From Rozella allomycis CSF55 (lineage: Eukaryota): DNA of 64,000 nt. The notes under the pieces were generated by a model. That model was not told the DNA's origin, searched no databases, and was given only the letters and a program-made list of their open reading frames with translations. The position numbers and the translations under genes were made by a program. Positions 1,478 through 63,640 of the stretch are shown in pieces. The first letter of the stretch is position 1; every line of letters starts with the position of its first letter. Location: contig KE560384.1 in assembly GCA_000442015.1 (NCBI GenBank), positions 62,001 through 126,000 of the forward strand, given 5' to 3'.

Positions 1478-3303
1478 TTAACATCCATGATCAATGGGTT
1501 CATCTTTTGATGCCTTTTTCCTATAAAATCTTGTTTCATTTGGATCAAAGCCTCTTTCGTTGCTTCCATACAATGCCCATGATGGAGTTTTAGTCATGTA
1601 ATCTAAAGAAGTGAAAGATGATTCAGAATTTGCAAATTCATGAAACTTTTCATAATCAATCCAAGTGTACCATTCGTTATCAATTTTGAACTTTTTGTGA
1701 GCAATGAGAATGGAGCATGAGTGTTCGTGTTCGCAAGACAATTCATAGTCTGGGAGGTGGCTAACAAACAACTTGCAAAACTCGACGACTTCTTTGTGGT
1801 AAGGGACATTACTCATTGTTAAGGGGTTTGACCCAGTGTAACCACAAAAAGTCACTCCCTTTATTTCGATAAAGTCTGGCTGTCCTCTTTTAACGAGTTC
1901 AATATAATTGTCCAGTTCATTTACATTAAAGTCTTTAACCAAAGTAAGACGATAAACAGTCCTTTGACCCTTTTTGGATAATTCACTCAAAGAAGCTAAA
2001 AAGCGCTCCCAGAAATCCTTAAACAGGGGTCTGTCAATTTTCTTTAAACTTTCCTTTGTGGCTGCATCAACGCTATTAAACAAGAAAAAGTAAATTTTAC
2101 CTGACATAAAGTTGAGTTACTGGAACCAAAGAAGTAATTAATTCCGGAAACTGGGCGTTTGTTACTAGAAAGGAGGATATCCTTTTTTGGTGAAGTAGAG
2201 TGACAAATTGATTTATTTCAGGGTACATAATTGGTTCTCCAACAAGAGAAAGTGCGCAATGTTTGATTTCAAAGGCCTCGTCCATTCTTTCTTGACCGAC
2301 CCCTGGCACTCCTTTCATTTGTTTGATCATTTTTTGGTGATTTTCAATCGCTCCATTTAACACAAACTCTGCATTATCCATTTTCCATTTCCATTCAGTA
2401 CCCACAGGATTCGTGTGATGTCGCCAGCAAAACACGCACTTGTTGGCGCAAGCTAAACTTGGCGTTGTTTCCATGCACCGATGAGACTCGATCCCATAAA
2501 ATGTGTGCTTGTAGCATCCTCCTCTTCCACGAAGCATAGATTTTGTCCAACGACAAATTTTCACTCCAGAATGACTTCCTATAATTTTATACCCTTGTTT
2601 TTGCAACGATTCTCTAACAATTGGCGTCACCATTTCTTTAACTTCACTTGAATCCCCCTTAACCTTGAGTTTAGACGCTAAAGATCCAAGCTCTTCCAAA
2701 TCCATAACCTATTGATTTAAAAGAAATCTTTTTACCTCCTTTTCAACTGTTTCTTCATCCGTCGATTCATATTCAACGTTTTCTGCCATTTTACTTTTTA
2801 AATGTTGAATTATTTTATTTGTCCATTTATTAAAAGTCTACATTGAAACATTCTATCCTTCTTACCTCCTCTTGCTCATCACTAGCATCACCGACACCCA
2901 TTGGAAACACTCTCTTTCCTTGCATCTTTTTCAAGCAAAGATTTAATGTTTTTCCAGCTTTATTAAAGTTATCGCCATATGCAGAATCAGCAAGACCAAA
3001 TACGGCATACTTCAAATCTCTTAAAAAGTCTTTATCAACTCTGAAATCAACTGTAGCTTCACTAAGCCATTCAAAGAAAAATTTTGCAGTTTCAGGTGCA
3101 CTTCCTTCAGTGTACGTTGATACAAAGAATACACACAACGCCTTTTCAGTGCCCAGATCTTCAGGATCATAGTCTGCCAAGTTTACAACTGAAACTATAT
3201 CTGCTACCTCTTTAGCCTTTTCTGCAAATATTTCTGAATATTTTTTGGCTGTTCCGGACTGTGTCCCATACAAAATTTTAATCTCAAAGTTATTTTCAGT
3301 CAT
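1478..3303 (-). CDS. TYW1: tRNA wybutosine synthesis protein 1 (flavodoxin + radical SAM), 4 exons
   Basis: Flavodoxin YGTQSGTA; GSHSGVKICRWTK; CANKCVFCWR radical-SAM cysteines; three 27-28 nt GT-AG introns join the ORFs in frame. Confidence 0.95.
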
Positions 3304-3894
3304 TCAAGCAAGGGTTATCAACAGAGTTTTATTTCTAATAATACTTATAAGTGAAGTGACGAAGAAATTTGACATTTAGTCATTAATTTGTAAAGACTTA
3401 GTTTATTATAATTTATCGCTTCCGTTATAACAATTATAATTCGAAATTAAAACACGGCTATATCTCTAGCAAATAGCAATTATAATTAAATAATCGTGAT
3501 AGCGATGATCGATCTGCGATAGAGCAGCGTTTGTTTTAATTCTTTCCTTTATCGAATGTAAGTGCTGACCAAAGAAACATGCTTGACTTTAGCAAATTTC
3601 ATCAAGAAGCACGATTATTTTACGAATAACATATAAAGAGAATAAAAATCTCTTAAATTAAAATTCGATTATTTGTTAGACCCTAACATTACCGAAAAGA
3701 ACAACTTTTCTAGTTGGTCGCAATTATGTCTATGGTTTCTATATGAGAATAGTATCAGAAAGAAAACTTATGGATCAAAGTTCTTTTCCTTCTTTTTTCT
3801 CAATTTGGAAATTTCTCAACGTGAAAACAGAAAATGTTCTCCAACAAAATGTAACTAGGTACAAACTAATCTATTGAAACTATTTGAAATGTAT

Positions 3895-6462
3895 TTATTG
3901 TTTTGGAACATTAGAAACAGAAGAATTAAACCCACCAGAGACCAGAAATTGTGAGGTATTGTGGATGGTCATTCCGGCTACTTTGGCTTGCCAATTTTCG
4001 AATATTTTAGACCATTTTTGGAACGATTCTTTATCAGCGAATTGAATGTTGTATTTATCACCATCAGAGACGATAATAGCCAAAAAAGACTTGTTGTTTC
4101 CAGAGTATTGGAATGAGCGAAGATATTTAACAAACCAACTAATTGAAATGCCACCTGGAGAGATGTTAGCGTCTTCATTATTTCTTTTATATTCTAGCAA
4201 GTGGATAGAGTTTCCATCGGTTGACAGGACAAGGGCTTTCAATTTAAATTCAGAAAATAGTCCTGACGATTTAACTTGAACCTTGGTGAACGCTTTCCAA
4301 TCTTTTGACATTTCGCCATCGATTTTCCCAAGAGAAAGTTTGCTTGCTTTTGTGGCTGGTCTCGAATGTTCTGAATTTCCAGAAAAGATTAAAAACAATT
4401 TGAAAAGAAAAGAGGAAATTAAATTGAAGAATGCAATGTAGGCAATGATGAATAATTTGACGAGAAAGCTGGCTTGGAATCCTAAAACGTTGCTAACCAG
4501 CATTGGGATGACAAAAGCAAGGACCATTGTGACGTTATAGATGGAAAGAGCAAGAATTTTCGTTTCTTGGAATTTAGCTGGGACATGCCTCGTTTTCAAA
4601 GCCATAAATAAATTCATTAAAAGAATTAAGCCGCAGTAAACAAGAATTAAAGTAAGAAAAGTGATTTGATTGTCGGGCGATGAGCTTGAACATGTCCAAT
4701 AGTAATCATGACGCGATGAACCCATTTTAACAACAGGGGAAGGAGAGTCTACAGCGTTCCAAATAATAACGATGAAAATAACTGGAATAGTCAAAGAACT
4801 CCCCAACAGTAAAACCTTCGAATCAGTCCATTTGGATCCTTCCGTTGTGGAAATAATATTAAATAAACGATACAATCTAACTGTTTTAGCAAATGTATTT
4901 CCATAATACAAAGAAAATGCAACAGCCAACAAAAATGAATCCGAAACACACGAAGCTTTCGTGGGTAACCCTGGCATTACAAAGAGTTGCAAAAATGCGA
5001 TTGCTAAAGACAAAAGGGAAACGTAGCTAACTTTAATACTCGATCTCATTAAAATTTGATTTTTTCTAAACAGGAAATAAAACGAAAAGGTCGCGAAAAT
5101 AGAAATTAATCCAATGGAGCCTAGAGCATGTGACAGAGTCCCCACAGGGCTGTTGCTGTCTACGTATTGAGCTACTTCGTATGGATCGATTGCATCTTTA
5201 GGCTTTTTCAACTGACCGCCGGGGTAAATCATCGCAATTCCTGAATTTATTATTTCTCCGTTACTCCACGTTGCTACTAGCTGAGCAGTTCCATTTATTC
5301 CATTATAAACGCTATAATCTCCAATTCTCTCTCCATTAGCGTCGAGAATCACATTTCCTGAAGGTGTCATTAAATCATTAAATTGAAACGTTTCCGGAAC
5401 TCTAATTTGATTATGATAAGTTTTGTTAATTAAATTATCAATAGAATTAAGATTTGATGATTTGAAAATTCGGTCTAGACCATGGATCAACAAGTCTAGA
5501 CAACTGGCCATCGCCATCGAATATACCCCTGGAATCGTTGAAGTTGTATTTATTGCAATTGGAGAATTCGTTTGATAAACACCCTGCGGCCACATTGATT
5601 TTATTTCATCATAAATTGGCCCTTGGCCTTCCTTTGCAATAAAAATAATACTCCCTTCAATTTCATTCTTTTGAATCGGATCATCAAACACTGTAATCAC
5701 CCCATCAGATGCAAGCCACGCATATCCCGCACCATATATTCCTTGCTCCTTGGCCACATTGATTATCTTTACATAATCAACAGCAAACCCAAAATATACA
5801 ATAATTCTTGAATCAACCGATTTTGTTGCTTGAACCGCCGACAATATTCGTTCTTTAGAATCTTCGCTATAAAACGATACCCTGGACAAGATTTGTATTC
5901 CCAGCTGTTTGGCTGTAATTGCAAACTGGTTTGCTAGATCCTGTCCATAATTGTCATTAGATGCTATCAACGAAACCATTTTCCATCCACTATTTTTAAC
6001 GTATTGCGCCATAGCATCCGCTTGGAACGTGTCACTAGGTGAGGTTCTGAAAAAGTTGCCGTATTTAGTTTTATCTCCCAGAGTTGGATTAGTAGACGAT
6101 CCACAGCACATTGGCAATTTGAAAGACTGCAGAACAAGAGACTCTATCGTTGACAAACTCGAGTAACCGGCGCCAATTATTCCCAGCATATTTTCATTAT
6201 TGAATTCAATCATCTGAGGCACTATTTTTGTACTATCCAGATCACTGTTCTTAAATGTTAATCTAATTGTTGCATTTGGGTGGATCAATGACGCATTTTG
6301 GTTTAATTGATCTGCACGAAGATATATGGCGTTGATCATGTCGATGAAAACAGTTTGATAGGATGTTATACCCAAAGAGATACCTATATTAATCGGTATA
6401 GTCCCATTAGGACTAAGAGATATTACACAAGATGCATAAAATAAGAGTAGTAATATCATCAT
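3895..6462 (-). CDS. Class C (GABA-B/mGluR-like) GPCR: signal peptide, Venus-flytrap domain, 7TM, C-terminal PH-like region; intronless
   Basis: GIIGAGYSS, KTKYGNFFRTSPSD, KTVRLYRLF, KTRHVPAKFQETK motifs; seven hydrophobic segments; probable start MMILLL at 6462. Confidence 0.9.
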   Translation of the reverse strand: MMILLLLFYASCVISLSPNGTIPINIGISLGITSYQTVFIDMINAIYLRADQLNQNASLIHPNATIRLTFKNSDLDSTKIVPQMIEFNNENMLGIIGAGYSSLSTIESLVLQSFKLPMCCGSSTNPTLGDKTKYGNFFRTSPSDTFQADAMAQYVKNSGWKMVSLIASNDNYGQDLANQFAITAKQLGIQILSRVSFYSEDSKERILSAVQATKSVDSRIIVYFGFAVDYVKIINVAKEQGIYGAGYAWLASDGVITVFDDPIQKNEIEGSIIFIAKEGQGPIYDEIKSMWPQGVYQTNSPIAINTTSTIPGVYSMAMASCLDLLIHGLDRIFKSSNLNSIDNLINKTYHNQIRVPETFQFNDLMTPSGNVILDANGERIGDYSVYNGINGTAQLVATWSNGEIINSGIAMIYPGGQLKKPKDAIDPYEVAQYVDSNSPVGTLSHALGSIGLISIFATFSFYFLFRKNQILMRSSIKVSYVSLLSLAIAFLQLFVMPGLPTKASCVSDSFLLAVAFSLYYGNTFAKTVRLYRLFNIISTTEGSKWTDSKVLLLGSSLTIPVIFIVIIWNAVDSPSPVVKMGSSRHDYYWTCSSSSPDNQITFLTLILVYCGLILLMNLFMALKTRHVPAKFQETKILALSIYNVTMVLAFVIPMLVSNVLGFQASFLVKLFIIAYIAFFNLISSFLFKLFLIFSGNSEHSRPATKASKLSLGKIDGEMSKDWKAFTKVQVKSSGLFSEFKLKALVLSTDGNSIHLLEYKRNNEDANISPGGISISWFVKYLRSFQYSGNNKSFLAIIVSDGDKYNIQFADKESFQKWSKIFENWQAKVAGMTIHNTSQFLVSGGFNSSVSNVPKQ

Positions 6463-6523
6463 CGTAGAATATGAGGTTACTATGGAAAGGTATCTGATGC
6501 CATGATCAAACGAAATTTCAGGA

Positions 6524-8196
6524 ATGGAGGACTGGGATATCAATAGGGTTGCTGGATTCCTGGAACAAAATGGATATTCAGATTATATAAATGTTTTTAT
6601 TGGTAAAAATTCTAGTTGCGGTGCATAGATAATCAAGTAGATGGAAAGGCTTTAATGTTTGCAGATAGAAGAATGCTATCAGAACTGGGTATAAAGACTG
6701 TAGGAAAGAAGATTAAATTACTAAATCTAATAAAGGAAGCTAGAAATTTAAATGAAAAGGAAGATGTCTCAAATTTTGATAATTTGACAGTCGACACTTT
6801 TGACAACAATTTCGATGGCATTTTAACATTAGAATCTGCTCTAGAAGAAAGAGGTAATTTTTAACGTTAATTTTAAGAGATAAAAAAGTTGCTCTTTTGC
6901 AAATAGAGATTATGAAACTAAAGTCTGACATTGAGAGCATCAAATGTAAATTTGAAAGCAGTTCGGAAGGAAACAATGAAGAGTTGAATTTGAAGTTTTC
7001 AAAAGTTGATTTATCAATACAAGAAAACAATTCGAGCCAAAGCAATTCAAACGAGAATAATTCAAATGAAAACCAATCAAACGGAAATAGATCTAACGAA
7101 AACAACTCAAGTGAAAATAATCATGGAAATCAAATAAAGTTGAGTGTTGGCTGTGACGCTATAGCGATTTACGAGTACCACGCTACCCGCAAAGATGAAT
7201 GCGATGTACGAATCGGGGACGAATTTAAAGTTTATGACATTATCGAAGAATGGACCATTGTAGGAAAAAAGGACAAGGAAAATAAAACAATTACTTCTAA
7301 AGGTTGGNAAATACAGCCCGGTCTACCTTCCAAAGGAATTGTTGTGAATGATTACGTCGCTGTTGGGAATAACGAAATTTCCATAATAAAAGGGGAAATG
7401 ATTTCTATTTTAAAAAGATATCAGCATTGGACGTTCATTTCTAAAGTAAATTCTACCGGTTGGGTTCCCAGCGAAAGAGTAAAAATCTTTAAAGATAAAA
7501 TCAATACCCCTGTACAAAATGAATCCTTTAAAAGTCCAATGCAAAGTTTGTCTAATAAAAGTCCGCTGGGTATTTCAAATTTTTCGCAATCACATGATTT
7601 GCAAATTAAAACTGGCAACTCCTTGCTAGAAAAACCTGTGCTAGAAAAAACCTTTCACAGTCTTGGGGATGTCCTTTCAGCTTCCATGGCTGAAAAAACT
7701 CCGACGTTTTCCAAATTTTCAAAAGACGAAAAAGAAATTGTTAAAAGCTTAAAACCTCAAGAAAAGGAAAAAATTGTCACAAACTACATTGAGAAAATAA
7801 AGTCGGAAAAATTGAATCCATCGAGCCAAAATAATTCACCACAGACTACAAATTCATCAAAAAGATTAACTTTATCTGATTTCCAAACGTTGCTAGAGAA
7901 TGGACAACTCTTCAACAATAAAAATACAATTCCAGAGGAACCAAATAGTAAAAACATTCGTTTCATGACAATTAGGATTTAATTATTATAACATTCCGTA
8001 TGACGACCTATTGAAAGCCAAGAATGATCCATCGTTGGATAGAATCCATTTAGAAGTAAAGTTAATTGCATTGATTTTATAGCGATACTTGTCTGAGGAG
8101 GATTGTCTTAGATATTTGCAATGCCAAAAGTCAGAGTTGGATAAGCTACCGGCATGGAAAATCAAACAAAGGAAACAGAGGGCCGATCTCCTATAG
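6524..8196 (+). CDS. SAM + coiled coil + two SH3 + villin headpiece protein, 5 exons (N at 7308)
   Basis: Spliced N-terminus MEDWDINRVAGFL...FIDNQVDGKAL...ELGI (SAM); AIYEYHA and VVNDYVA...GWVPS (SH3); spliced C-terminus HLERYLSEEDC...LPAWKIKQRKQRADLL* (headpiece). Confidence 0.8.
7023..7127 (+). repeat. Degenerate 15-bp coding tandem repeat (ENNSS/QSNSN/ENNSN..., about 7 units)
   Basis: Five-residue periodicity in the translation and DNA. Confidence 0.7.
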
Positions 8197-8876: not shown

Positions 8877-10942
8877 ATGAGCAATAGTTTCTTTACTACA
8901 TGGAATTCATCGTGGACAGGTGGATTTTCACAGGGCAACGATGAAGATGATATTTTGGAAGATGAAAATGCAGAATACCAAGTAGGAGACACAAAAATAA
9001 CTTAATAAGAATTTTTGGAACTTTAAAGATTCTATATTATTTGCGATAGACTGTAACAAGGAGATGCAAGAGAAGGGATTTGTGTTGAATGCGATAAAGT
9101 GTGCGAGATCAGTATTGGAGAGTAAAATAATTAGCAGCGAAAATGATGTTGTTGGGATTTTGTTATATAATACGAAACAGACGAGGAATGTGTCGCAATT
9201 TCCATTGATTTATATGTTCCAGGATATGGACCAACCGGATGCGCAAAGGATTATGGAGTTGGAAAAGATGGAAAAGGATTTAGAGAATGGACAATTAAAT
9301 GTTACAGAATCATGTCAAGATGACCAAATGGTGTCTTATCAAGACTTGTTTTGGATTTGTTCAACGATATTCTCACAGAAAGCCCACAAGATGGGATCTA
9401 AGAGAATATTTTTGATAACAAATGAAGATCATCCGCATGCAACAAATCCAGCTCTTCAAACGAGTGCTTTAAGAAGAGCAAAAGTATTTTAATTGAAAAA
9501 GTATTTTTTAGGATTTGAATGAATTGGGGATTTCAATTGAACTCTTCATGTTTAATAAAGCGAATAAAAATTTTGATTTAAGTTTATTTTATAAAAATGT
9601 CGTTGAAGAGGAAGACATTCAAAATGCAGAATCAAAGTTTGAAGAATTGATGGTTCGAATTAGAAGAAAGGAAACTAAAAAGAGACCCTTGCAAAAAATA
9701 TTGTTTGGTTTGGGAGAAAATTTTAATATTTCTCTCAAAGTGTAATATTTTTAATAAATTTGTTATAGTTTTTTACTTTTCAGCCCAGCAAGAAAAGGAA
9801 ATCACGTTTACTTGGATTCAAGAACAAACAATGAAGTCAATGTCATGACAGAATACATTTGTAAAGATTCTGCATCAAATTTATTGCCTTCTGACATTAA
9901 AAACTATTTCGAATATGGAGGCGAAAAGGCAATCTTCAATAAAGACGAACTTTTGAAAATTAAGAAATTTGGCCCTGCTGGTAAAGCAAACAAAATTTCT
10001 TTCAAAAGGTTTAACTTTACTGGGCTTTAAACCAAAAGAAAGATTAAAATTAAAATACAACTTGAAAAATTCATATTTTATTTATCCAGATGACTCTCAA
10101 GTTAAACAAAGTTCTCTCTTCTTTTCTCATTTCCTTGATAAATTGGAAGCCAAGGGAAAAATCGCCATTTGTCGCTACATTGCTAGGGACTACAGCAAAC
10201 CATCAATCGTTGCTCTTTTACCACAAAAAGAACAATTTGATGAGAATGGAATTCAAATTAAACCTCCAGGGGCTCATTTAATAACTCTTCCATTTGCTGA
10301 TGATTTAAGATCTTTGCCAAACGATTCAATCCAAAAAGGTAATCTGAAATTTCTCAAATCAATCAGCCAATCACGATCAAGTTGATAAAGCAAAAGAAAT
10401 CGTTGCAAAGTTGACTCTTCATGGTGGTTTCAATTATGATAACTTTGAAAATCCATCAATTCAAAAGCATTATGCTGTCCTTCAAGCCTTGGCTCTCGAC
10501 AGAGAAAAATTGGAAGACTTCAATGATAACACAATTCCAAAATATGANTCAATGATAACACTATTCCAAAATATGAACAAATGGATAAAAGAATTTCTTC
10601 TCTCGTAGAAGAATTCAACACTTTAACTGGCTTGTCTAATATTCCCAACGAAGAAAAATTTAAAGCTACCACAAAGAAAAGATCGGCCAATGAAGAATCC
10701 AAAACAACCAAAAAGAAAAAGGCCGAAACTAATGATGAACCCGAAGAAAATGTTTCAATTGACGAAATTGTTAAATCTGCACATGCAAAGGGAACAGTAA
10801 TTTGATCACACTTTTGTTTCTTTAGTTGTCTAAATTGACCATTCCGAGTCTCAAAGAATATTTGGCGCATGTTGGGGTAAAACCCAAAAAATTGAGAAAA
10901 GCCGATTTGTTGGAACAAGTGGAAGAGCTTTTATCGCAATAA
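8877..10942 (+). CDS. KU70: Ku70 NHEJ DNA-end binding protein, 7 exons
   Basis: vWA DSILFAIDC, KRIFLITNEDHP, LTLLGFKP, FIYPDD, LPFADDLR, FENPSIQKHY, C-terminal SAP-like exon; 27-29 nt introns; assembly duplication at N10548. Confidence 0.95.
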
Positions 10943-47919: not shown

Positions 47920-49660
47920 TTATTTCCATTGACGGTTATCGGACCCTTTGTTATTCTTTTGCTTTACATAATGCTCTTTTCCGGTCATTTTCGCTTTCTT
48001 GGCACCCTTGTAGATTTTATCTTTGCAGCTAGCGCCGATTGTTAGTTGAACTGTTGGAGGTACAGTAAATCCAAACGCTTTTGCAACTTGTTGTAAATCT
48101 AATTGATTAACGTTGAAAATTTTCTTCAATCCATGAGACGCATAAGCAAGCAAGTAACTTCTATAGCCATCTTTTGCAGATTTGTTCAAATAAAAGTTTT
48201 TGGAAATCAATTTTTCAAGCTAACATTAGAATGACTAGTTAGGTTTACTTGTATTTGAACGTTAGCAATTTTGTTTGTTGGAAATTGATACTCATTTAGT
48301 GGAACTTTGGCATTTTTCAAAAAGCGAAGAAAGCCAAGTTCTGAAGGCAAAAGGAACAATAGAGCTTTGCCACTAGCGTTTTCACCACGAGCAGTTCTAC
48401 CGACACGGTGAATATATTCCTAGAATTATATAAAAATGATTAAGCTACTCTTGGATCATCTGGAGGATCATATTGAATGATCCAATCTACGGCGGGAATG
48501 TCTAAGCCTCTAGCAGCAACATCGGTACACAAAAGAATACCCTTTTCAGCATTAATGAATTCAAAAAAGGTTGAAGTTCTCTTTGTTTGTTTTTGTTTAC
48601 CATGTAACTCGAGTACTGGAATGTCAATGTAGTTTAACAATTCAGCATGGTACTTTACACTGTTGCATGAAGAAAAGAAAACAATGACTTTCTTTTTAAG
48701 ATTTTTCTTAAGAAAAGTAAACAACAAAAGAAAGCGTTGTTCAGATGGGCAAACCACGTAGCCTTGTTCCAATTTGTCATTTGTGGCGGCTTCTTTATTT
48801 TCATCAACGTTGATGTACAATGGAGCTCTCTTTAAAGACAATCGTGCAAGATCTTCGACTTTGGTGGTTTGAGTTGCAGAGAACAACATTGTTTGTCTCT
48901 CTTTTGGAAGAATATTCAAGATTTGTTTCATTTCTTGTTCAAAACCAACTTCAAGGATTCGATCAGCTTCGTCAATGATTAACATTTGTAAATTCTTGAA
49001 AAGAAATCCTTTCGTATTTTGTAAATGATCTAATAAACGACCAGGGGTAGCTACGAGTAAACTAACTCCCTTTGTAAGTTTTTCAGCTTCACCTCTTCTG
49101 TTAGCACCACCCATAACGACACCAAATGTTTGATTGTGATATTTGAATAGTTCTTTTGCGACACTAAAAATTTGCAATGCCAATTCTCTAGTTGGAGTTA
49201 TAATGATCACACCAGTTCCATTTCTTGGCTTGAATTTGGTTCTCGACAATAATTCAACAGCAGGCAACAAAAAAGCCAGAGTCTTTCCAGATCCTGTCTT
49301 TGCAGCCCCAAGAATATCTCTTCCCGTTAACGCAGGTGGAATACATCTAGCTTGCACTTGGGTCATGTACTCAAATTTCATATCCTCAATCGCTTTCATG
49401 GTAGATTCAGTAAAATCTACAGCAGAAAATTTCTTCTTTTCATAATCTTCGAAATCCTTGGCACTTTCCAATTGTAATTCTTTGGATTCTTTGGAAAAAT
49501 CACCAACCACTTGAACGGTTTCATCATCTTGTTTGGTTTGTGACTCCCCGTCGTTGGAATTTTCTAAATATTCGTCGTTGTCAGAAAAGCAAGTTTCAGA
49601 AATATTTCCCTCGGAATTAGAGTCTACTTGTTCTTCCTCTTTGAATTTTCTCTTTCCCAT
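47920..49660 (-). CDS. HAS1: DEAD-box RNA helicase Has1/DDX18, 3 exons
   Basis: [51 protein letters not shown]. Confidence 0.97.
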
Positions 49661-49958
49661 TCTCGCTACCGGGGTGACGACTGTGCCACAACTCGTTTAA
49701 CATGAATCAAATTAGAACATTATAACAAATTATAATAAATAATATTCAAACTCTTTGAATTTTTTTGTTCAGAGTATCCGTCACAGACTCACGGTGTCAT
49801 TCCATAGAGTGTAGGATTCCAATTTACAAACAGTCTGTACTCTTTAGAATGCATAGTTTATTTTTGAAACTCTTACTTAAAATTTCATCTCATTCAGTTG
49901 CTTGTTTTCTTTGGTATTCTATTATCTACAAGAGCAATCTGAAATTTCAGAAATAAAA

Positions 49959-52255: not shown

Positions 52256-52256
52256 A

Positions 52257-53009
52257 TTAATCTTTCATTTTATTTTTGTTCATTTTGTCCATCCATTCAT
52301 TATACAGAATTGCAAGTTCAGGTGAACCCCCAATTGCTTCCTTTGTCAATTGCAACTCTTCTAATCTTCTATTTATATCTTCAAAATCTTTCGTTATCTT
52401 CTTATGAAATGGTGACTCAATTTCAGTTGTTTCTACAGCCTTTGATTCCACCAGTATCCTCTGACTGTTCTTCAAACAGTGAATAGCCTCATTGTACAAT
52501 TGGACTTGCTGAAGAAGACTCCCGATATATTTCCATCCTTGATAACATGTTCTTCTTTCATCTAAATAGCCAGTTATATACATCAATGCATCTTATGATT
52601 AAACTCAATCTATATTTACTCTTGTAATCTTTAATCTTATGAAACGCTTGGAAAAGAAGTAACAAACTACCTGCATCTCTCGTCTTTAGTGAAATCTATA
52701 ATCAAACTCAATACACATTACAAGCTCATTCGCAACCAACTTTATATTCTCACACTCTTCAAGTTTCATAAAACACCTCAATCTTAAATCCACAATTTCC
52801 TTCTTCCCTTTTATATTCTCGCATTCCAAAAGGCATTTCCTATACTCTCCTCTATAATAATACTCATCTGCCCGGTATTTCGCCATCGGCAGTGTCTTGC
52901 AATACTCTTTATCATCAAAAGACGAATCCTTAAACCACTGCTACACATATTTATATATTCTTACATTTTCTGTACGGTAAAAGAATGAATACTCTGAATC
53001 TTGTGGCAT
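52257..53009 (-). CDS. TPR-like protein resembling the C8orf76 family, 4 exons
   Basis: WFKD...KYRADEYYYRGEYRKCL; TPR-like helices; only in-frame ATG of the first exon is at 53009. Confidence 0.6.
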
Positions 53010-54516
53010 GGGCGAAAAACTTTACTTGGTTCGTTTCGTACAACGACATGCTGAATTTCGATTAGCTGAATTTGAAGCTCTGTGCAAATTATTTGATATA
53101 AAATACAAGGCGCACACGGAATACACTGATCTTGTATAGTTATTTTTTGAAAATGATGTAGAGTCCGTTTTGGATTGTTTCTTTCAGATCTGAAGATGAT
53201 ATTAGAAAAATATTGTCGAGGTCTTTTTTGATAAAGTATATAGATATGGTTTGAACTAGTAGATGTGTGTTGGAGCATTATGCGTGCAGCGAACAATCGT
53301 TAGATCATTTGGCAGAATTAGTTAAAGATATACCGCAAGATGTTTTCGTAAGATTATTTGGTTCAATCGAGTCAGGAAGTTTATAGAAACGATACATTTA
53401 AATTTGTTATAGACACTTTTGCTACCTCAATGTCTGGCAAGGAAAAGATTGACACTATAGAAAAGTTTGCTTATCTGCCATTTGACGGGGACATTGACTT
53501 GAAAAATCCAAAGAATACTTTTCACGTGATAATCGATAACAGACACACAATAGAAAAGGAACCAAGAGCGTTCTATTTTGGAAGATGGATTGGAGATGGA
53601 AATAGAGAGTTTATCGATATCTATAATGTCAAAAAGAGAAAATACATTGGCACTACAACAATGGACGCTGAGCTGTCGCTGATAATGTCAAATATGGCAC
53701 TAGTCAAGAAGGGGTCTCTGGTTTACGATCCATTTGTTGGCACTGGTAATTTATAATAATTGATATTGTGGGCAGCTTTCTAGTTACTTCATCTTGCTTT
53801 GGGTCTTATTCATTCGGTTCAGATATTGATGGGCGGCAGATTAGAGGCAAAGATGGAAGTATGTTTAATGATTCACATTTAATAGAAAAATCTTTGAAAT
53901 CTAATATAGCACAGTACAAGCTACAAAATAGAATTCTGGGTACAGTTGTTTGTGATATTACTCAACATCCATTTAGGCCCGATGGTTTCCGTTTCGATGC
54001 AATTATCACTGATCGTAAGTATTATTTTTTCTATTCAAAAGCTCCTTACGGTGTTAGAGCAGGCGCGAAAAAGATTATGATGAAGGAGGGCGGTTTCTTC
54101 AAAAATACTGAAGAGTAAAAATGAAATATTTTCTATTAAATAGCGGTAAAAGTTTTTATCCTGCAACCATTCCTTACGAACTGCCAGATGTTATTTACGA
54201 TTTACTAAATTTTTCTTCAGTATATCTTGAAATTGGTGGCAGGCTGGTGTACTGGTTACCAGTAATTGATGATGAAGAGTAAATTTATTGCAATGGGTGT
54301 AATAGGGAAAATGATTTAAAAGAGCCTCCTAATCATCCATGTTTTGACATGATCTCAAAATGCCCTCAAATATTCGGCGGCTGGCGAAGGATTCTTGTTA
54401 CAATGGAGAAAAAGTGCGATCCTGAATCTATAGACTTTAATATCAAAAAAGATCATTTGGTGGAACCTTTTAGAAATCGGTTTTTCACGAAAATGAAATT
54501 AAACAGCGAAGCATAA
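53008..54516 (+). CDS. TRM11: tRNA m2G10 methyltransferase Trm11, 9 exons
   Basis: YLVRF...HAEFRLAE, KRKYIGTTTMDAELS, DPFVGTGS, GSDID, DAIITDPPYGVRAG, GGRLVYWLP. Confidence 0.96.
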
Positions 54517-54527
54517 TATAAATAAAT

Positions 54528-54580
54528 TGATTAAATTAAATGATTAAGTTAAGTGATTAAAGTAAATGATTAAATTGAAT
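54528..54580. repeat. 13-bp AT-rich tandem repeat (tgattaa(a/g)ttaa(a/g), about 4 units) between convergent genes
   Basis: tgattaaattaaa tgattaagttaag tgattaaagtaaa tgattaaattgaa. Confidence 0.7.
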
Positions 54581-54620
54581 TATTGAATGAAATTTATGAC
54601 TCGCGATAAAAACAATATGT

Positions 54621-55727
54621 TCAAAAGTCTGGCACTGTATTGATGAATTGTGGCGATTTTAATCTAAAATACACCATTGTTAACAAACCTAGGAGAATAA
54701 CACCACCGACAAACGAATAGATAATTTTTGGCATTAAGTTTGACACATCCTCGCGATGAGCCAGTTCTTTCATGTCTAAATATGTTCTCTTCATAAATTC
54801 TGGATAATTTTCGTTGACTTCATACTCATAAATGCTGCTTTTGAGATCGTCAGGAGTTATATCATATAAAAGAGAATTTACATAGTTCTGGAACGTTGTT
54901 GCAAAACTTAATGAGGCGAATAGAGTATTCACAGTTAACTGGTTTTGAAAATAGTAATTTACGTATTCAATTACTGAAGAAAGTACTTCTTTTTCTATCT
55001 TTCCAGCCGATTCTTCAACGGACAATTTAAGCATAAGAACAAATGTACTTTCGACTATATCGCACACTGATGAAATGAAGGGACTTTCGGGTACTTCTGA
55101 ATATGCTGGAGGTTTTATTAAAGCATTCTTAAGAATCTTATGCTCGTATACAGCTTTTAAAAGATGAACAAATGGTAATTCTTTAGTGTTGCGTAAAATA
55201 TCAAAAACTGAATTGTATTCATAATCTTTCGCGTGTCTTTTCACCATAATTGGTATGAGCTTCGAGTTATCTGTCATCATAGAAGCAAGCAGCATAATAT
55301 CATCATTGCTAATTTTTTCTTTTTTGGACAAAGTTCCACTGGGTACTTTATACGACCCGTTATCTTTCAATCCCAATAAATTTAGATGATTTCGAGAATT
55401 TTCATTAGGTGCAATCGCAAACAAAAAGTCGACAAAAAGATTCTTATTTGCCTCACTCAGCGAACTCTTCAGTATCACTTTCAAAGTCGAAGCAGACGAA
55501 ATAAACTTAAATACGTGCTCTTCAATTTCATAATTCTTGGTTAGTTCATTAAATGCTTTATGAAACGCAAAATCAGATAATCTTGAAATCAAGTTGTCGT
55601 TTAAATATTCGATGTTCAGATTATCTATCCTTGACATAAGATTTACACCGAGTTCATTATATCGTGCTGTATCACATAAATACAACGAAAAAAACCAAAA
55701 GAAAAGTAGTGCACTTGAAAATTTCAT
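54621..55727 (-). CDS. Type I membrane protein of unknown function; intronless
   Basis: Signal peptide MKFSSALLFFWFFSLYLC from ATG 55727; C-terminal TM IIYSFVGGVILLGLLTMVYF. Confidence 0.75.
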   Translation of the reverse strand: MKFSSALLFFWFFSLYLCDTARYNELGVNLMSRIDNLNIEYLNDNLISRLSDFAFHKAFNELTKNYEIEEHVFKFISSASTLKVILKSSLSEANKNLFVDFLFAIAPNENSRNHLNLLGLKDNGSYKVPSGTLSKKEKISNDDIMLLASMMTDNSKLIPIMVKRHAKDYEYNSVFDILRNTKELPFVHLLKAVYEHKILKNALIKPPAYSEVPESPFISSVCDIVESTFVLMLKLSVEESAGKIEKEVLSSVIEYVNYYFQNQLTVNTLFASLSFATTFQNYVNSLLYDITPDDLKSSIYEYEVNENYPEFMKRTYLDMKELAHREDVSNLMPKIIYSFVGGVILLGLLTMVYFRLKSPQFINTVPDF

Positions 55728-56020
55728 CAGTGGCTCCAATGGTGGCTGTGTATAGCTATATTTAAAATGTCGCGTTTTTGATGTATTAATAGTATTCTTC
55801 ATAACAAACTTATTAAAGTATTTTCTGCAATTACCTTGGTATATTTCACAGCCTTTATTTGCACCTTCTGAATTGAGACTTGCCTTGGCATTTCCTGCTT
55901 CATTGTACCAAATATAAGTACGAATATTGAAATATTTCAAATATTTTCTTCCTTTCCTTTACATTTTCATTTGTTGCAAGTTTCTTTCCTGTGTTTTTTT
56001 ACGAAAAATCAAATTTTGTG

Positions 56021-56691
56021 ATGTCAAGAAATACAGCATTAAAAAGGCTCATGACAGAGTACAAAGGTAAATAGCTTCAAAATTCATATATTTTAAAGAA
56101 CTTACATTACACGCTCCTGATGGAATAACTGCCGGTAATAAGCATATCATCTGGTGATAGGGCCCGTTTCTGAAAATAACTTTTTTGTGTGGGAAGCTTT
56201 AATAGCGTACCTTTTGATTGAAATATAAAGTAGAGGACCTGAAGATACACCATTCGAAGGGGGTGTTTTTGTTGCAAAACTTACATTTCCAACTGATTAC
56301 CCGTTATCTCCTCCAGAAATGAGATTTACGAGTGAAATATTCCACCCCAATATCTATTCGGATGGAAGAGTGTGCATTAGTATCCTGCACGCACCAGGGG
56401 ATGATCCTAATCAATATGAAAGTAGTTGTGAAAGGTGGAGGTAAAAAAAATAGTGCGATTTATTACTAGTCCTGTACAATGTGTTGAGAAAATACTTCTT
56501 TCTGTTGTATCGATGCTCGCAGGTAAGTAATGAATTATATTTGTGATAGAACCAAACGTAGAGAGTGGAGCGAACATAGATGCTTGCGTAATAATTTATT
56601 GTCGTCTTTAATGAAGAAAATTTATAGAAACGATATAAATGAATATAATAGAATAGTTAGGGAATGTGTGAAGAAAAGTCTCGGCTTATAG
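56021..56691 (+). CDS. UBC7: Ubiquitin-conjugating enzyme Ubc7/UBE2G2, 7 exons (absent from the ORF track)
   Basis: Spliced [54 protein letters not shown]...ERWSPVQ. Confidence 0.95.
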
Positions 56692-56736
56692 TCAATTCAA
56701 AATTGCATCATAAAGAATATGTAAATTTTAATTTTA

Positions 56737-59702
56737 TTATTTCTGTACTTCGTAGCCAGCATAGCCATGGGGATTTGCTTCTCTTATGATACGAAGAAAA
56801 ACATCTTCCAATGTTGAATGAGAAATACCCCACGCTTTAATTAGTCCTAATCAATACTATCAATCTTCTTATACCGTCTGGATTGGTTTCAAGATAATCT
56901 ACAAATTTGGGAATATATGGAACTTCATTCGGTGAGATGTTGTAAATTAATGATCCTGCTGTTTCATCTTCTAATTTGGCTTCTCTCATCCTTGCAGATA
57001 CCTGATCTTTAACTTTATTTGAGTTTTTAGGGGAAATAACTAGAGAAATTCGGTACCCTGAACCAAACCTTGCCTTGAGATTTATAGATGACCCTAAAGC
57101 CCGGATACGACCATGAGCCATGATCGCAATTTTATCACCCAAAACATCGGCTTCTTCCATTGAATGTGTAGTTAAAATTACAGCCCTGTCTTTTTTAAAC
57201 TCTTCAATGAATGTCCAAACATGTCGTCTATTTAATGGATCCATTCCAGTTGTGGGTTCATCCTACAGAATTGTTAATTATCATTAAATACCATGTAAAC
57301 AACGTGAGGATCACCTAGCGTACTTAATATCAAAGATAATCGTCGTTTCATTCCTCCGCTGAAAGTTTTAACATGAGCGTTCACAACCTATTAAAATATT
57401 TACTACAAAAATACTTTATCCAGTTTGACCATGCTTATCCTTTCTTTCATCGTTTTTCTAACTTTGCTCAAAGAAAGGTTCTTTATTCCCGCGTAAAGCT
57501 CAACATGTTCCCAGGGTGTTAAATCTTCAAACAAAATATCAAACTTGGTTATCAAATTTGTTTGAATGATTACTTGAGGACAAACTCCCATAATTTCACG
57601 TATTTTATGCATTTCAAATCTAACACTAAAGCCAAAAATAAATGCATCCCCGTCTGTTAGTCGAACCGCCCCTGCAAGAATGTTTTGGAGAGTGCTCTCT
57701 TAATATCAATCAGTAAGATTTACTTTGCCAGCTCCATTTTGTCCCAAAAGAGCCAATAATTTCCCATTTTCAAGAGTTAAACAAACATGATTCACAGCTA
57801 GTTTGGATTTAACCGATGAAAATATTCCAGATGAATAAACTTTCTTCAAATTTGTTATTCTTATTGCAAATAGCTTTCTCAAGTCAAATGCCTCGTCTCG
57901 TTCTTTTTCAACGTCAACATCCTCGTTGTATGGCTATATTTTGGCTTTAACGATTATACTATTTTTATTTTTTGACTATTTTTTAATTGTCTCATTGCTC
58001 TGGAATGGGTGAATGCATGAAATCCATAATAAGCTGGGTTCAAGAAAAACAGCGGACCTTTTCTATTTCCGATCGCATCAGGGAAAACTCTATCAAAATA
58101 TCTATCAAAATTCTGTCATGAAATTACAATGCGAGAATAAAATAAATGCCTGACAATACAAATAGACATACAAGTGACTCTATTGTTGGAGGAATGTATG
58201 GTGAGTCTCCATAATTCGGGATATAAACTTCAGGCAAAGGAATAAAAAGATCTTTCATCCTGAATCCAGGTCCAGCTACTATCATTTCACTAATTGAGTA
58301 TTTGAACAATCTATTACGTCACTGGATCTAACGGTCCCTGAGCCAATTGTTTTATATCTGTAGTTATTTTTCCAAAGTGAAAAAATGGAATGGCGTAGAA
58401 AAGGTACTTAATGATACTTGGAGTTATTTTTGACCACCATAGGTATGCCAAGTATGTTTCAGAGAATATTATGGACGTGAAAATCAACCCCACAATGAAA
58501 ACTCCAATCCCACAAAGCAAAGCTGTTTTAATTTTTAAGCAGAAAGTAGTTATCAAATAGCCCAAATTTATCATGGCTAAATTGAATGCAAAGAGTGTAA
58601 CAAAAATAACCTATCTTATACGCAGAAATATAGTACTATAAAATCTGTATTTCTGATTAAATCAAATTTAAAAATGTATCCCAATGCAATAGTGACTAGT
58701 CCGTTAATCGCCGCCAAGGTTGAATGGAAAAGCAGCCAACTCAGCCAGTAAGAAATGGACTATATCTATTATAACGTAAACCGCTACCTTCAGTCCCATC
58801 ATGTCCATACTAACTCTTGTCTTTCTATCTTTATCAAGCATGACATGGTTTATCAAAGCCATAAAAATAAACATAGATGCACTGTATGTAAACGATAGGA
58901 TAAATCTGGAAACAACTTGATCGGAATAACCCAAAGAGGGAATAACCGGCCAATCACGAACGGTCACATCGATATTCAATGGGTTGGAATTACCATCTCC
59001 ACTAGTTAGGACAGTAATGATTGCCTCATCTATTCCTCTGATCAAGGAGTGAAGAGATGATCCAAAAGAATCAATTGCATGTCCATCCGAACTCTTTTGG
59101 CGGACTAGTGTAGAGTTATACCAAATTAAATATTGAAAATTGGAACTATCTTGACTAAACGTAATTCCGAATTGGGTAATGTTCGGATTCACTAGAACGT
59201 ATTGGTAAAGAAATTGTTCATTTGGTACAGCCACAGCNNNNNNNNNNNNNNNNNNNNNNNNNNNNNNNNTCTATGAAAATTATGTATTTAATCTACTTGT
59301 CAATGGCGATGAATACAGCGATGTCGGGTTACCGCCAATACTCTGAAGTCTTGCGTTGTTCTTGGTTATGAAGGTTTGTATTATGTTGTCGTTTATTGAA
59401 GATTTTGGTGTGTACATTATGTCAATGCAGTTCCCCTTTTTCATAATCATTTAGGTTTTTACTGGACAGCTAATCAATGGGCTCAAAGAGCTCGAAGGCG
59501 GATTGTAATTGTATGTTTTAATCGCGTTACTTTCAATTGATTGTAATGACCAAAGAATGATGTATATTAGTGTGGGAGCTATAACCAATTGTACAATAGT
59601 GGCTTTCCAATGCCTCATCTAATATAAATTTGAATAAATATGTACAGCCAATATTATATTCTTTTTGAATAATACATATGTTTGCAAAAAATAGAGAAAC
59701 AT
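56737..59702 (-). CDS. Half-size ABCA-family transporter (one TMD + one NBD), about 14 exons, gap at 59238-59269
   Basis: QTYVLFKKN...RHWKAT; MMGLK..SYWLSW; LLGQNGAGKS; MGVCPQFDIL; FSGGMKRRLS; DEPTTGMDP; ILTTHSMEEAD; start may extend to about 59809. Confidence 0.92.
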
Positions 59703-59893
59703 TGTATGTTTGGACTAATGAAATTTTGGATTTCGCTATTTGCAAGTTTCTTTCTCAGCGCAATAATATGTATCAGGTTCATTGAATTGAATTCGGCTTT
59801 GCCATACATGTTTTCTTGCTCAATAATTGACAATGAAGATTTTCGACTTCAAAAATAAATNAATGAAGATTTTCGACATCAAAAATAAATTTC

Positions 59894-62603
59894 ATGGATT
59901 TGTTGAGACTCGATTTTCAAAAGGAAATAGCTATAGATATATCAGATAATGATGCACTTTTTGTATTAGCCAAGGGAATAGGTCACGATTCAATAATATC
60001 AACGTTGTTAAAAGCGTTTGCGTCACCACAGGTCCTTGTGTTCCTTGTACACGCATCATCTGAACAGGAACAATCATTTATTTCTATTTTTAAAGCGCAG
60101 GGATGGGATTTAAATAATTTCAAATGTGTTAATTCTGACCTTACTTCCAAGGCAAGGTAAAGATCATTAGCCTTAATCAAAGATCTCAAATGTATGAAAA
60201 GGGTGGTGTTTTTAGTATAACATCGAGAATTCTAGTCATGGATTTGTTGAAAGAGCATATTCCCATTGAAAAAACCACAGGGATGTTGATATTGAATGCA
60301 CATACAATTACTGATGAAACATTAGAAGCATTCGCTATGAGGTTATATCGGCAAAAGAATAAGAATGGATTTATTAAAGCGGTTACTGAAAAAGCGGAAG
60401 GATTGACTATTGGATTTGCAAGGTTGGAAAAAACTCTGAAATGTTTGTATTTAACAGATGTAAAGTTTTATCCACGATATGAAGTTCGAATCGCTCAGCA
60501 GTTGGAAGAAAAAGAGACAGAATTGATAGAAATAAATATTGGAATGACTGATAAGATGAAAGACATTCAATTGGCTTTGATAGAAGTTATGGATAAATGT
60601 ATAAAAGAATTAGCCAAGATGCACAAAGAACTAAATATTGAAGAAATGAATGTAGAAAATGGATATTTTAAACATTTTGATGCAATAATTAAACGACAAC
60701 TGGATCCAATATGGCACACAGTTGGTTTGCGTTCCAAACAATTAATGTCAGATTTGGTCGATTTAAGGAATTTAATACAGTAATATTAAAATAATTTCAT
60801 TTAAATAGCTATTTGAATAGTACAGACTGCGTAACATTTTACTCGTATTTGGAAACGATTCTAACGAGCCAAAAAATGAATGAAATGGGAACGAGTTGGG
60901 TTTATTTTGATGCTGCAAATGTTGTGTTTGAGCTTGCCAAAGAAAGAATAGTAGAAAAGAGCCAAGGAAAGCTTAAGCTGACTTTAGAGAAGAATCCTAA
61001 ATGGGATGTTTTGAATCAAGTTTTAGATGAAATTAAACAAGAAACTGCAAATTTAGATCAACAAAGAATATTGATTTTAACTCAAGATTCCAAACATTGT
61101 AGACAGCTGAAGAAATTACTTGTTGATGGGCCGAATAAACTTTTGCGTGAAGTGATACAAGAAAATGAGAATCTTAAAAGCCAATTGAGGCCCATTCTGG
61201 ATGTTGGGTTGATTAAAGAACCTTTGGAAAAGAAACGGAAGCGAGAACTTCGAATGCCTGAAATGAACAATGTTGATTTGGTGTAAATTTACATTTAAAT
61301 TATTTTTAGTAAATTGCTGGTTGAGGAGCCAATTGATTATGAAAGTTCTGTTCAAACTGAAGACAAGGAGTTTAAAATCATTGATGAGCCGATTATAAGA
61401 ATTCAAACATTTTCAGATATAAAGTTTGGCTCAATATTGAATGAATTTATGCCTGATTTTATTATTCTAATGGAACCCCATTTAGAAACAATTCGATTCA
61501 TTGAAGTAAATAGCTGAAATCAAAGTCATTAGACTTTCAATGCTACATTCAAAGAACATTCTTTAAGAATTTATTTATTTTCTTATGAATATTCTGCAGA
61601 AGAGCAAAAATATCTTACATCAGTTAGACGTGAGAAAGATGCATTTCAACGTTTAATTAGAGAAAAATCTGTACATATTTAACTCTTTATATTCATAGGT
61701 TATGGCTGTCGGTAAAGAACAAGATGGAAAAGTTCAGCTCATTGATGACGATGACTTGACAAATGTTAACACTAGAATAGCTGGCGGAAAAGTTGAATTT
61801 GAAGCACATAAAGTAAAATTTCATTGTTTGTTAAAAACTTGATAATTATTGATTCGAGAGAATTTCGAAGCTCTCTTCCTTCAATCCTGCACAAGAAGAA
61901 CATTGACATTGAGCCGGTCACTATCGAAGTTGGAGATTATATTCTCACACCCAAAATATGTGTAGAAAGAAAATCTATTCCTGATTTAATATCATCATTG
62001 AATACTGGACGGCTGTATACCCAAGTGGAAGCGATGTGTAGATATTATGATCATCCTATAGTCCTAATTGAATTCGATCACCAAAAAGCATTTTCTTTAC
62101 AAGTAGTTTAATTTTTATCTATAATTATTAGTCACAAGAGTTTTATTCCTCTGAAATCAATTCTACTAGCGTATCGTCTAAACTCGCCTTGCTAATACTT
62201 CATTTCCCAAAATTAAGACTGATTTGGTCTTCAGGAGTTTACGAAACTGTTGAAATCTTTATGGATCTCAAAAAAGGTCAAGAACAGCCAGATTTAAATA
62301 AAGTTTTACTCACAGGTGGAGATTCTTCAATAGAAAATGATGAATCGACTAACTTTCTCTTCAAAGTATAAAATCATGAATCAAATTGATAGGATATTTT
62401 GCTAACTACGCCAGGTGTTACNGGATATTTTGCTAACTATGCCAGGTGTTACCATTTACAATGTTAGGACAATTTTGCAATCAGTCAAGAATTTGAAAGA
62501 TTTGTCTAACAAAGATTTGAAGTCTTTAAAAGCCTTAATAGGGGATGGCCCTGGAGAAAAGTTACATTCATTTATACATAAAAACTGGACAAACAAGAAT
62601 TAA
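59894..62603 (+). CDS. RAD1: XPF/Rad1/Rad16 structure-specific endonuclease, 9 exons
   Basis: [47 protein letters not shown]...[10 protein letters not shown]-terminal HhH. Confidence 0.95.
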
Positions 62604-62674
62604 GTATTAAAGAATAAAAGATTTCTTCATTATTTAAAAGTGTTCCCTTCATATTTGTTTTTCTTAACAACCTC

Positions 62675-63640
62675 ATGATCAATGAAAATGTAAACTTTCA
62701 TATAAACCTAAACAAGGTCAATTATGAGAGACTAAAGACCTGGTCCAAATATTTAAACTTAGAATGGCACCCGTTTCTAGCAAAGAAATATTTTGAAATA
62801 GTGCAAAATAAAAGGGAATGTGCCTACCATCACAAAATTATCAATGATTCTCATAGAACTCTAAAGACTTGTACCGATTTCAAACAGAAGGTATCAGATA
62901 CATCAATTACCCGCGTTTTAAATGCTTCGGTGCATTTATTAGAAGAAGTTAACAAGCATGGTAATAATTTACACAAAGAGACACCTTAGACGACTATAAA
63001 TTCACGTACGTCCAGGGAATGAATGTTTTACTTGCGCCTTTCATATTTGAGTTTGGCGAAGCACCATCATTATTCATGTTTTCCAAATTCATTCACATTG
63101 TATGCCCCACATATGTTCAACCGCAGTTGCAGGGTGTCCATGCATCAATTAAAGTATAAATGTAACTATAATGTACCTAGTTGTTTGACGAGATATTTAA
63201 AAGATGTGATGAAGAACTGTACAATTATTTAAAGAGTAAAAATATTTCTAGCCAGATCTTGGCTTTTGCTCGTAATTAACTGCTTTTTATAAGTACAGCA
63301 TTAATGACTTTTTCAGCGTGCCTATCTCCTTTTGACGAAGTTATTAAATTATGGGATTACTTTATGACCTATGGGTTCCATTTACATATTATTTCATTCG
63401 TTTGCAACATTGTAAAACATAGAGAGGAATTATTGGCGACAAAAACGTAAATATATTTTTCAGTCAGTTAATCATAGTCCTAGCAATTTACTAAGAGCAA
63501 ATTGGCCAACCGTAGATGCTAGCTTTTTGATAAAGGCAACATCGGCTTGTGCGATGACAATTTCAGGCCAGTTTATGAATTTGCTTAAATCTCACATGAT
63601 CGATATGAAGGTATGTGCAGAAATAAATAACGAATGTTAA
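62675..63640 (+). CDS. BUB2: Bub2/Cdc16-like TBC-domain GAP, about 6 exons
   Basis: KIINDSHRTL, YVQGMNVLLAPF, CPTYVQPQLQGVH, LMTFSAC...EVIKLWDYFMTYGFHL. Confidence 0.85.

Follow-up and report, generated by a model that had tools for sequence, protein, structure and literature searches.

Genes in a 64,000-nucleotide (nt) stretch of the Rozella allomycis CSF55 genome (contig KE560384.1 of assembly GCA_000442015.1, positions 62,001 to 126,000 of the forward strand; hereafter the window, numbered from its first letter) are interrupted by introns that fall almost entirely into one narrow length class of 26–29 nt. Two of these introns, in the genes for XPF/ERCC4 and for a TRM11-like tRNA methyltransferase, appear from homology to end in TG and GG in place of the usual AG. 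On balance, it is probable that these are U2-type introns at minimal size, in which the 3′ splice site is set mainly by geometry and AG is preferred with TG and GG being usable. A stronger version had been put forward in an original prediction made from the letters of the window alone, namely that the 3′ site is placed by its distance of 26–29 nt from the 5′ site, that only the final G is strictly needed and that a few percent of introns constitutively end in TG or GG; this version is held tentatively, as somewhat short of probable. The prediction was otherwise largely right: the tiny introns are real and already annotated, half of the non-AG claim is artefact and half a real and testable lead, and its ruler is reasonable but unproven.

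The length class was examined in a census of GT..AG pairs separated by 12–79 nt that join two frames, both with 50 or more open codons, and where reading through breaks the frame. Such joins numbered 19, 12, 28, and 18 at 26, 27, 28, and 29 nt, respectively, compared with 7, 1, 3, 6, 2, and 2 at 20–25 nt; when GTA donors only were counted, the values were 12, 11, 22, and 12 versus 1, 0, 1, 0, 0, and 1. No length peak was seen in the same census for the control dinucleotide pairs CA..TC, TG..GA, and AC..CT. A Viterbi gene finder was written for the purpose, combining 3-periodic coding statistics with GT..AG introns whose length prior was flat over 15–100 nt. It placed 113 introns, of which 71 were of 26–29 nt, 7 of 30–32 nt, and 5 below 26 nt. 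After retraining with splice-site position weight matrices, it placed 92, of which 69 were of 26–29 nt, and a run that permitted lengths of 20–40 nt and, with a penalty, all NG acceptors gave 87 (77 at 26–29 nt). With regard to a safeguard of the Paramecium type, in which introns of 3n length are scarce or contain stops, introns of 27 nt were not rare, with 14–16 per run from a finder that is blind to stop-free introns of 3n length. The later positional counts (positions of G and AG, column counts, and frame readings) were made by eye. The predicted sizes of nearly always 26–30 nt are largely borne out, and the predicted number of well over 100 introns comes down to about 85–90, several regions of the window having been left unmodelled by the finder. 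Intron density in the genes is about one per 700 bases.

A narrow class of this kind could in principle arise from hand placement, the introns of the original prediction having been placed by eye, or from a finder that expects tiny introns, and short GT..AG pairs that occur by chance are many (466 candidates). The peak persists under the flat 15–100 nt prior, however, and is absent from the control pairs, so that the length class is no product of hand placement; individual junctions are also confirmed by public proteins and homologs. This explanation is already refuted by the control pairs and the flat-prior run, and next to no weight is left to it.

Four public R. allomycis proteins map to the window and belong to two annotation sets (one on a 129-kilobase (kb) scaffold, the other on short contigs) that differ at single residues. 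The HAS1 helicase, whose open reading frame (ORF) of 418 residues at 48443–49696 on the minus strand has 100% identity to HAS1 of R. allomycis CSF55, served as a positive control. Its exons correspond to residues 1–404, 405–461, and 462–560 of the public protein P0001, without gap or overlap, and are separated by two introns:

48420–48448, minus strand, 29-nt GT-AG intron of HAS1, between the exons for P0001 residues 1–404 and 405–461
48220–48248, minus strand, 29-nt GT-AG intron of HAS1, between the exons for P0001 residues 405–461 and 462–560

Both introns are identical to those of the public model, and tiny introns as such are therefore already in the databases and not new. Removal of the tiny introns restores both the frame and a conserved protein in HAS1, TRM11, XPF, and ligase IV (KYDGER joined to VQAH). 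One further intron contains no in-frame stop:

54015–54041, plus strand, 27-nt intron within the TRM11 motif D|PPYGVRAGAKK; DPPYG is present in the homologs and in the public model

The open frame of this intron was read through by the ORF-based finder, and introns of this kind are thus missed when introns are sought from ORFs.

Splice signals were counted in 78 introns of 26–32 nt, in which the GT itself is present by construction of the finder and a bonus for GTA in the first run biases the donor count slightly. Position +3 was A in 76 of the 78, and position +4 was A in 52, T in 16, C in 7, and G in 3, with no conservation further in; as predicted, GTA is the sole donor consensus, with nothing fixed beyond an A-rich +4. 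AG ends ~95% or more of the modelled introns. The base before it is unusually relaxed, with T in 45, A in 18, C in 9, and G in 6 introns, such that AAG and GAG together account for 24 of 78. These acceptors had been predicted to be frequent, and the examples named for them (8982–9009, 9981–10008, and 32596–32622) are real candidates, including:

8982–9009, plus strand, 28-nt intron ending in AAG in a Ku70-like gene; joins exon 1 to the ORF starting at 9001, with no other AG before 49 nt
32596–32622, plus strand, 27-nt intron ending in GAG, placed by the gene finder

No pyrimidine tract was found in the 78 introns, as positions −16 to −4 contain ~41% T and ~10% C, which is not above the 5′ half. 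No branch-like word or other internal motif was found in a MAFFT alignment of 23 introns of 28 nt, in which only G1, T2, and A3 are invariant, and no position held more than 8 A residues among 16 introns of 26 nt (columns counted by eye). The predicted lack of an evident branch point or pyrimidine tract therefore holds at this sample size.

No intron shorter than 26 nt is required in the window. Each of the five calls below 26 nt in the matrix run is otherwise explained, one by an assembly duplication (14543–14558) and four by in-frame alternatives from the same donor:

17305–17331, 27-nt in-frame alternative
21533–21560, minus strand, 28-nt in-frame alternative
50733–50760, 28-nt in-frame alternative
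40577–40605, 29-nt in-frame alternative

A 38-nt call at 31900 can also be replaced by an in-frame 26-nt alternative at 31912–31937. AGs that lie nearer to the donor than the site used are skipped in several introns where the frame decides:

6854–6879, plus strand, 26-nt intron ending in GAG, AAG at 24 nt skipped; no length other than 26 (or 35) nt joins the 79 open codons upstream to the 366 that follow
26489–26517, minus strand, 29-nt intron, TAG at 24 nt skipped; only a length of 29 nt joins the ORFs 26481–26810 and 26275–26493
30785–30813, minus strand, 29-nt intron ending in CAG, AAG at 25 nt skipped; by eye, a length of 25 nt leads to a stop after 14 codons and 29 nt leaves the frame open to the TAA at 30576–30578
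43114–43141, plus strand, 28-nt intron ending in GAG, AAG at 26 nt skipped; by eye, a length of 26 nt leads to a stop after 15 codons and 28 nt leads to the stop of the gene at 43297–43299

An AG at 24 nt is also skipped by frame in 45117–45144 and 53348–53375. Of the introns for which the original prediction had AGs at 24–25 nt passed over in favour of 26–29 nt, those at 6854, 26489, and 30785 stand, whereas that at 22067 has a canonical rival. In five introns of 30–32 nt (40713–40742, 30934–30963, 45008–45038, 51814–51844, and 56067–56098, read by eye) the terminal G is the earliest G at or beyond position 26. The predicted floor of 26 nt is retained in the sense that nothing shorter is needed, but not as a strict use of the first AG from 26 nt, as 43114–43141 skips an AG at exactly that distance.

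The clearest non-AG end is found in the gene for XPF:

61813–61841, plus strand, 29-nt intron of XPF/ERCC4 (GTAAAAT...CTTG) with a TG end, placed by alignment of the downstream exon and the junction to homologs

The upstream frame ends in ...EAHK at 61812 and meets a stop at 61839–61841, and the downstream frame opens at 61812. From the donor at 61813, AG is absent at 26–45 nt and the next one is 46 nt away; the terminal G of the proposed intron is, by eye, the only G at positions 26–33. The exon 61842–62102 aligns from its first residue to residues 684–769 of human XPF, and position 1 of the Pfam ERCC4 profile aligns at residue 3 of this exon. All six homologs examined (alignment A2) have [KR]-[IV]-I-[IV]-D-x-REF across the junction, and this motif is reproduced by the junction with the TG end. 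The only GT..AG pair at the site that keeps the frame, 61830–61858, deletes IIIDS, and the public models use an 83-nt intron (61813–61895) by which 17 conserved aligned residues are lost, including the D-x-RE motif. Taken at the level of sequence, the TG end is strongly backed by homology. A PDB search with the upstream exon gave nothing useful, and a metagenome scan with the XPF exon returned 77 loci, the best at 75% identity, with no close relative of Rozella among them. The public XPF models (P0122 and P0395, 59894–63883 on the plus strand) are also fused to a downstream RabGAP-TBC gene (PF00566), giving chimeras of 1017 and 1023 residues.

A GG end is similarly supported in the TRM11-like gene:

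53746–53771, plus strand, 26-nt intron of a TRM11-like tRNA methyltransferase (GTAATTTATAATAATTGATATTGTGG) with a GG end, placed by the spacing in homologs

Counted from the donor at 53746, the CAG at 30 nt is out of frame, and the public models use the TAG at 38 nt (53783), which is in frame. All nine TRM11 homologs examined (alignment A1) have DPFVGT followed by (G/A)SxL, exactly 15 residues before GSDIDGR. The frame of the window from 53774 reads (G)SFLVTSS..., in register with the homologs, whereas the public models read DPFVGT-VTSS... and are 4 residues short. Because these 4 residues and the spacing common to all nine homologs are restored only by the GG end, the 26-nt intron appears to be needed, and its GG end can likewise be regarded as strongly backed by homology. 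PDB searches with the TRM11 exons gave nothing useful, and no hit was obtained with Pfam and NCBIfam for the second exon.

Four introns had originally been listed with TG or GG ends. The two above are carried by homology, whereas one of the others is doubtful and one has a canonical rival:

22067–22095, minus strand, candidate 29-nt intron of ligase IV with a TG end, frames read by eye; an AG at 25 nt leads to a stop after 10 codons
22195–22220, minus strand, 26-nt intron of ligase IV (GTGAG...AAAAG), directly after KYDGE(R); joins KYDGER to VQAHLWFEE in frame
52941–52975, minus strand, probable canonical 35-nt intron (GTACAG...GTAG), frames read by eye; its rival is the donor at 52964 with a TG end at 29 nt (52936–52964)

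In ligase IV, the TG end at 22067–22095 is a candidate whose terminal G is, by eye, the only G at positions 26–37. A 77-nt intron with canonical ends (22019–22095) keeps the frame as well. The 48 nt by which the two differ (on the side of 22019–22066) are exon-like in composition, with ~37% G+C by eye. The exon 21562–22065 matches positions 68–204 of DNA_ligase_A_M and aligns to LIG1/LIG4 only from residue 21–27, so that its first 20 residues are unpinned by homology. The neighbouring intron at 22195–22220 is the corrected form of a 35-nt call of the finder, and both public models skip this region. A PDB search with the short ligase exon gave nothing useful. Further along the gene, both public models place a 16-nt intron at 21533–21548, which adds CRGFN; the in-frame 28-nt intron from the same donor gives KKD-Y-IDGYGDT, and a PDB search with the ligase exon after 21533 returned nothing to decide between 16 and 28 nt. 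In the region 52936–52975 on the minus strand, two donors, GTACAG (52975) and GTAAGA (52964), lie 11 nt apart, and the reading with a TG end skips a CAG at 27 nt. For the gene at 52257–53300, Pfam gave no match that decides between the TG and 35-nt readings and no informative homologs were found; the TG end at 52936–52964 is doubtful.

It was also noted that artefacts of the assembly can mimic odd introns. Five of the nine single-N positions in the window are flanked by direct copies of 24–33 nt with 1–3 mismatches, and the resulting inserts of 25–34 nt are of intron size:

10520–10548, unstranded, duplication of 28 nt plus N with 1 mismatch; shifts the frame of Ku70, with the peptide NDNTIPKY found twice in two frames
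14542–14566, unstranded, duplication of 24 nt plus N with 2 mismatches; gives the false introns 14543–14558 and 14514–14541
44951–44984, unstranded, duplication of 33 nt plus N with 3 mismatches; overlaps the donor of the real 31-nt intron 45008–45038
59832–59861, duplication of 29 nt plus N with 1 mismatch
62392–62422, duplication of 30 nt plus N with 1 mismatch (ACG versus ATG); the public proteins carry one copy each, with T or M at this position

The copies at 62392–62422 differ exactly where the public proteins differ, which points to two alleles set side by side at unmerged contig ends, as all five duplications appear to be. Two introns with GG ends called by the finder were rejected as false repairs of the frameshifts caused by such duplications, namely 10605–10630 (from the duplication at 10520–10548) and 44974–44998 (from that at 44951–44984). 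Duplications at single-N gaps break reading frames in this assembly, and introns placed by frame alone would mislead at such sites.

GT-AG ends are near-universal among U2-type introns, and it might be that all real introns of the window end in AG, with the TG and GG ends explained as base errors at −2, as mutated sites in decaying genes, or by public models that are right about residues that are truly missing. Both public annotations use AG introns in these genes, assembly artefacts that imitate tiny non-canonical introns do exist, and the canonical alternative in the ligase has a spacing that fits LIG4. Against this, what the public models treat as intron contains, in frame, 17 codons whose residues align to human XPF, including D-x-RE, and the G-S-x-L of the first methyltransferase motif at its exact spacing, either of which is beyond chance. 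XPF and TRM11 are otherwise intact and open across all of their other introns. Neither site has an N nearby, so the artefact of N-flanked duplications does not apply there, and two base errors at −2 among ~90 introns within 64 kb are unlikely. The second assembly differs at scattered residues yet yields the same long-intron models, which suggests that it has no AG at the usual distance either and has the same bases at both sites; this support is indirect, because the two annotations probably stem from one pipeline. All considered, an explanation by AG ends throughout is judged unlikely.

Several observations nevertheless weigh against a geometric choice of the 3′ site with usable TG and GG ends. 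The firm non-AG ends are few, at 2 of ~87 introns in one 64-kb window, with up to 4 possible. The 77-nt intron of ligase IV gives a spacing of 57 residues between motifs I and III compared with 58 in LIG4, a better fit than the TG reading, where the LIG4 value uses an equivalence of residue 331 taken from the alignment and K273 as the motif I lysine. It is conceivable that the splice sites are decaying, as XPF and ligase IV are repair genes of a kind that relatives of Rozella tend to lose. The intron 43114–43141 is an exception to the use of the first AG from 26 nt, and in 57263–57291 and 41513–41540 a TG at 26 nt loses to an AG at 29 and 28 nt, respectively; with the G at position 26 skipped in all three, the rule is not deterministic. 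In TRM11, the GG at 26 nt must beat a good CAG at 30 nt, and no single simple rule covers all introns. The finder accepts GT donors only, with non-GT donors outside its search and stop-free 3n introns invisible to it. Finally, the contigs of the lone RNA run with the species label share next to no words with the window, and when compared with 44001–64000 gave only 8 pieces of ~20–40 nt at 90–99% likeness, with two meaningless joints.

A different question is where such a ruler begins. In yeast and mammals, an AG that lies too near the branch point is passed over in favour of the next one downstream, and in introns as tiny as these the branch A must itself lie close to the 5′ site. The ruler may then be anchored at the branch point, with a usable site lying beyond a minimal distance from the branch A and the total length kept constant because the leg from the 5′ site to the branch is also minimal. 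If the branch A moved by a few bases from one intron to another, this could account for the use of position 26 in only some of them, and the 15–16-nt introns of Stentor have their branch A at a fixed position, according to the available part of one paper (PMC9505925). No dominant A was seen in the 26-nt or 28-nt classes, however, nor any branch-like word, so that a branch site cannot be placed in these introns. Anchoring at the branch point is considered quite possible, although we lean slightly away from it. The ruler from the 5′ site, as originally proposed, is favoured by the 26–29 nt window, the bypassing of nearer AGs, and the lack of branch or pyrimidine signals; it is not deterministic, and an anchor at the 5′ site is inseparable from one at the branch A. 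We therefore take the view that distance plays a part and that AG is favoured without being required, with a ruler that may start at the 5′ site or at the branch A.

In the reading that we favour, the introns of Rozella would be of U2 type, shrunk to the smallest size that this spliceosome can handle, with GTA at the 5′ end, an A+T-rich body that has neither a pyrimidine tract nor a fixed branch-point word, and a 3′ end at 26–29 nt (rarely up to ~35 nt). With so small a lariat, geometry would be the main determinant of the 3′ site. Sites less than 26 nt from the 5′ site would be unusable, and the site used would be one of the first usable ones within a window a few bases wide. AG would be the normal end (in at least ~95% of introns), with little demand on the preceding base, and where no in-frame AG lies within the window, a G after T or G may serve, as proposed for XPF (TG at 29 nt) and TRM11 (GG at 26 nt). 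The data of the window establish the length class, the floor, the relaxed −3 base, and the homology argument at the two non-AG ends, whereas splicing of the RNAs at these sites, a geometric cause, and the position of the branch A are inferred.

Short introns are known from several lineages, with lengths of ~25 nt in Paramecium, 15–16 nt in Stentor, and 22–27 nt in dicyemids and myxozoans, and they also occur in microsporidia such as Encephalitozoon (PMC8997360, PMC5014332, PMC9505925, and PMC13644364, each as far as its accessible portion goes). Like the window, such genomes have introns of one narrow class below ~35 nt, with GT..AG ends, bodies rich in A+T, and internal signals that are weak or missing. 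Rozella differs in belonging to another lineage, the sister of microsporidia, in its class of 26–29 nt, and in having at least two apparent non-AG ends. In Stentor, the branch A occupies one and the same position in ~91% of introns (PMC9505925), whereas no fixed branch A is seen in the window. A 2026 list of short-intron lineages does not name Rozella in its accessible text (PMC13644364). Two introns of ~30 nt without the usual 5′ and branch motifs were described in the Rozella S23 gene by Whelan et al. (PMC6349667, accessible text), and a Joint Genome Institute (JGI) paper gives a lowest fungal median intron length of 29 bp without naming the species in the text available (PMC8042348). No account of a length floor, a relaxed acceptor, or non-AG ends in Rozella was found in the literature search, and the genome paper of James et al. 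2013 may say more. In human U2-type introns, TG is reported as an alternative 3′ splice site in 36 genes (Szafranski et al. 2007, PMC2374985, accessible portion), which indicates that a U2-type intron can end in TG. As presented in that portion, the human TG ends are rare alternatives, whereas in Rozella a constitutive intron would have no productive site other than its TG or GG, in ~2–3% of introns.

The bypassing of near AGs and the deciding role of a distance window are features that Rozella would share with yeast and mammals, where the choice of AG is branch-anchored. A branch word can be recognised in those systems and a pyrimidine tract is usual, and neither is seen in the window.

The window is nuclear DNA of a rozellid, the sister lineage of microsporidia; a ciliate or dicyemid origin was rejected on the strength of the HAS1 match, and the organism is neither a nucleomorph nor a microsporidian. 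It is gene-dense with conserved content, encoding a class C receptor, an SH3 protein, Ku70, kinases, ligase IV, a C2 protein, HAS1, TRM11, and XPF, and its G+C content is even at 32–36%. The standard genetic code suffices, and a variant code was excluded because the long ORFs are open under the standard code with no reassigned stop codon needed. No tRNA was found in a scan of the window, and Rfam gave no match to it. The receptor is encoded at 3895–6582 on the minus strand by an ORF without introns of 815–895 residues, with a ligand-binding ANF_receptor domain and a 7tm_3 domain that mark it as a class C (metabotropic-glutamate-like) receptor in a rozellid. At 59238–59269, 32 consecutive N interrupt the minus-strand ORF 58707–59270, and the gene model is incomplete there. 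Single-residue differences separate the public sets from one another or from the window, including N/D at residue 187 of HAS1 (48449–49660, minus strand), S/G in ligase IV (21562–22065, minus strand), and I/V in TRM11 (53774–54112, plus strand), which indicates either allelic variation or two differing assemblies of the same strain.

XPF, ligase IV, and TRM11 are wrongly modelled in both public R. allomycis protein sets; like the frame-breaking duplications at single-N gaps, this is of practical use under any mechanism. Few signals in eukaryotic gene expression are as constant as the AG that ends introns. If TG and GG indeed stand in for it in a few percent of constitutive introns of this free-standing lineage, with nearby AGs ignored on account of distance, every public annotation of this genome would mis-model such genes, because gene finders insist on AG. 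The introns would then provide a natural experiment on the recognition of the 3′ site in the second step of splicing and on the minimal size of a lariat, and Rozella, as the closest intron-rich relative of microsporidia, would show a path to their reduced spliceosome.

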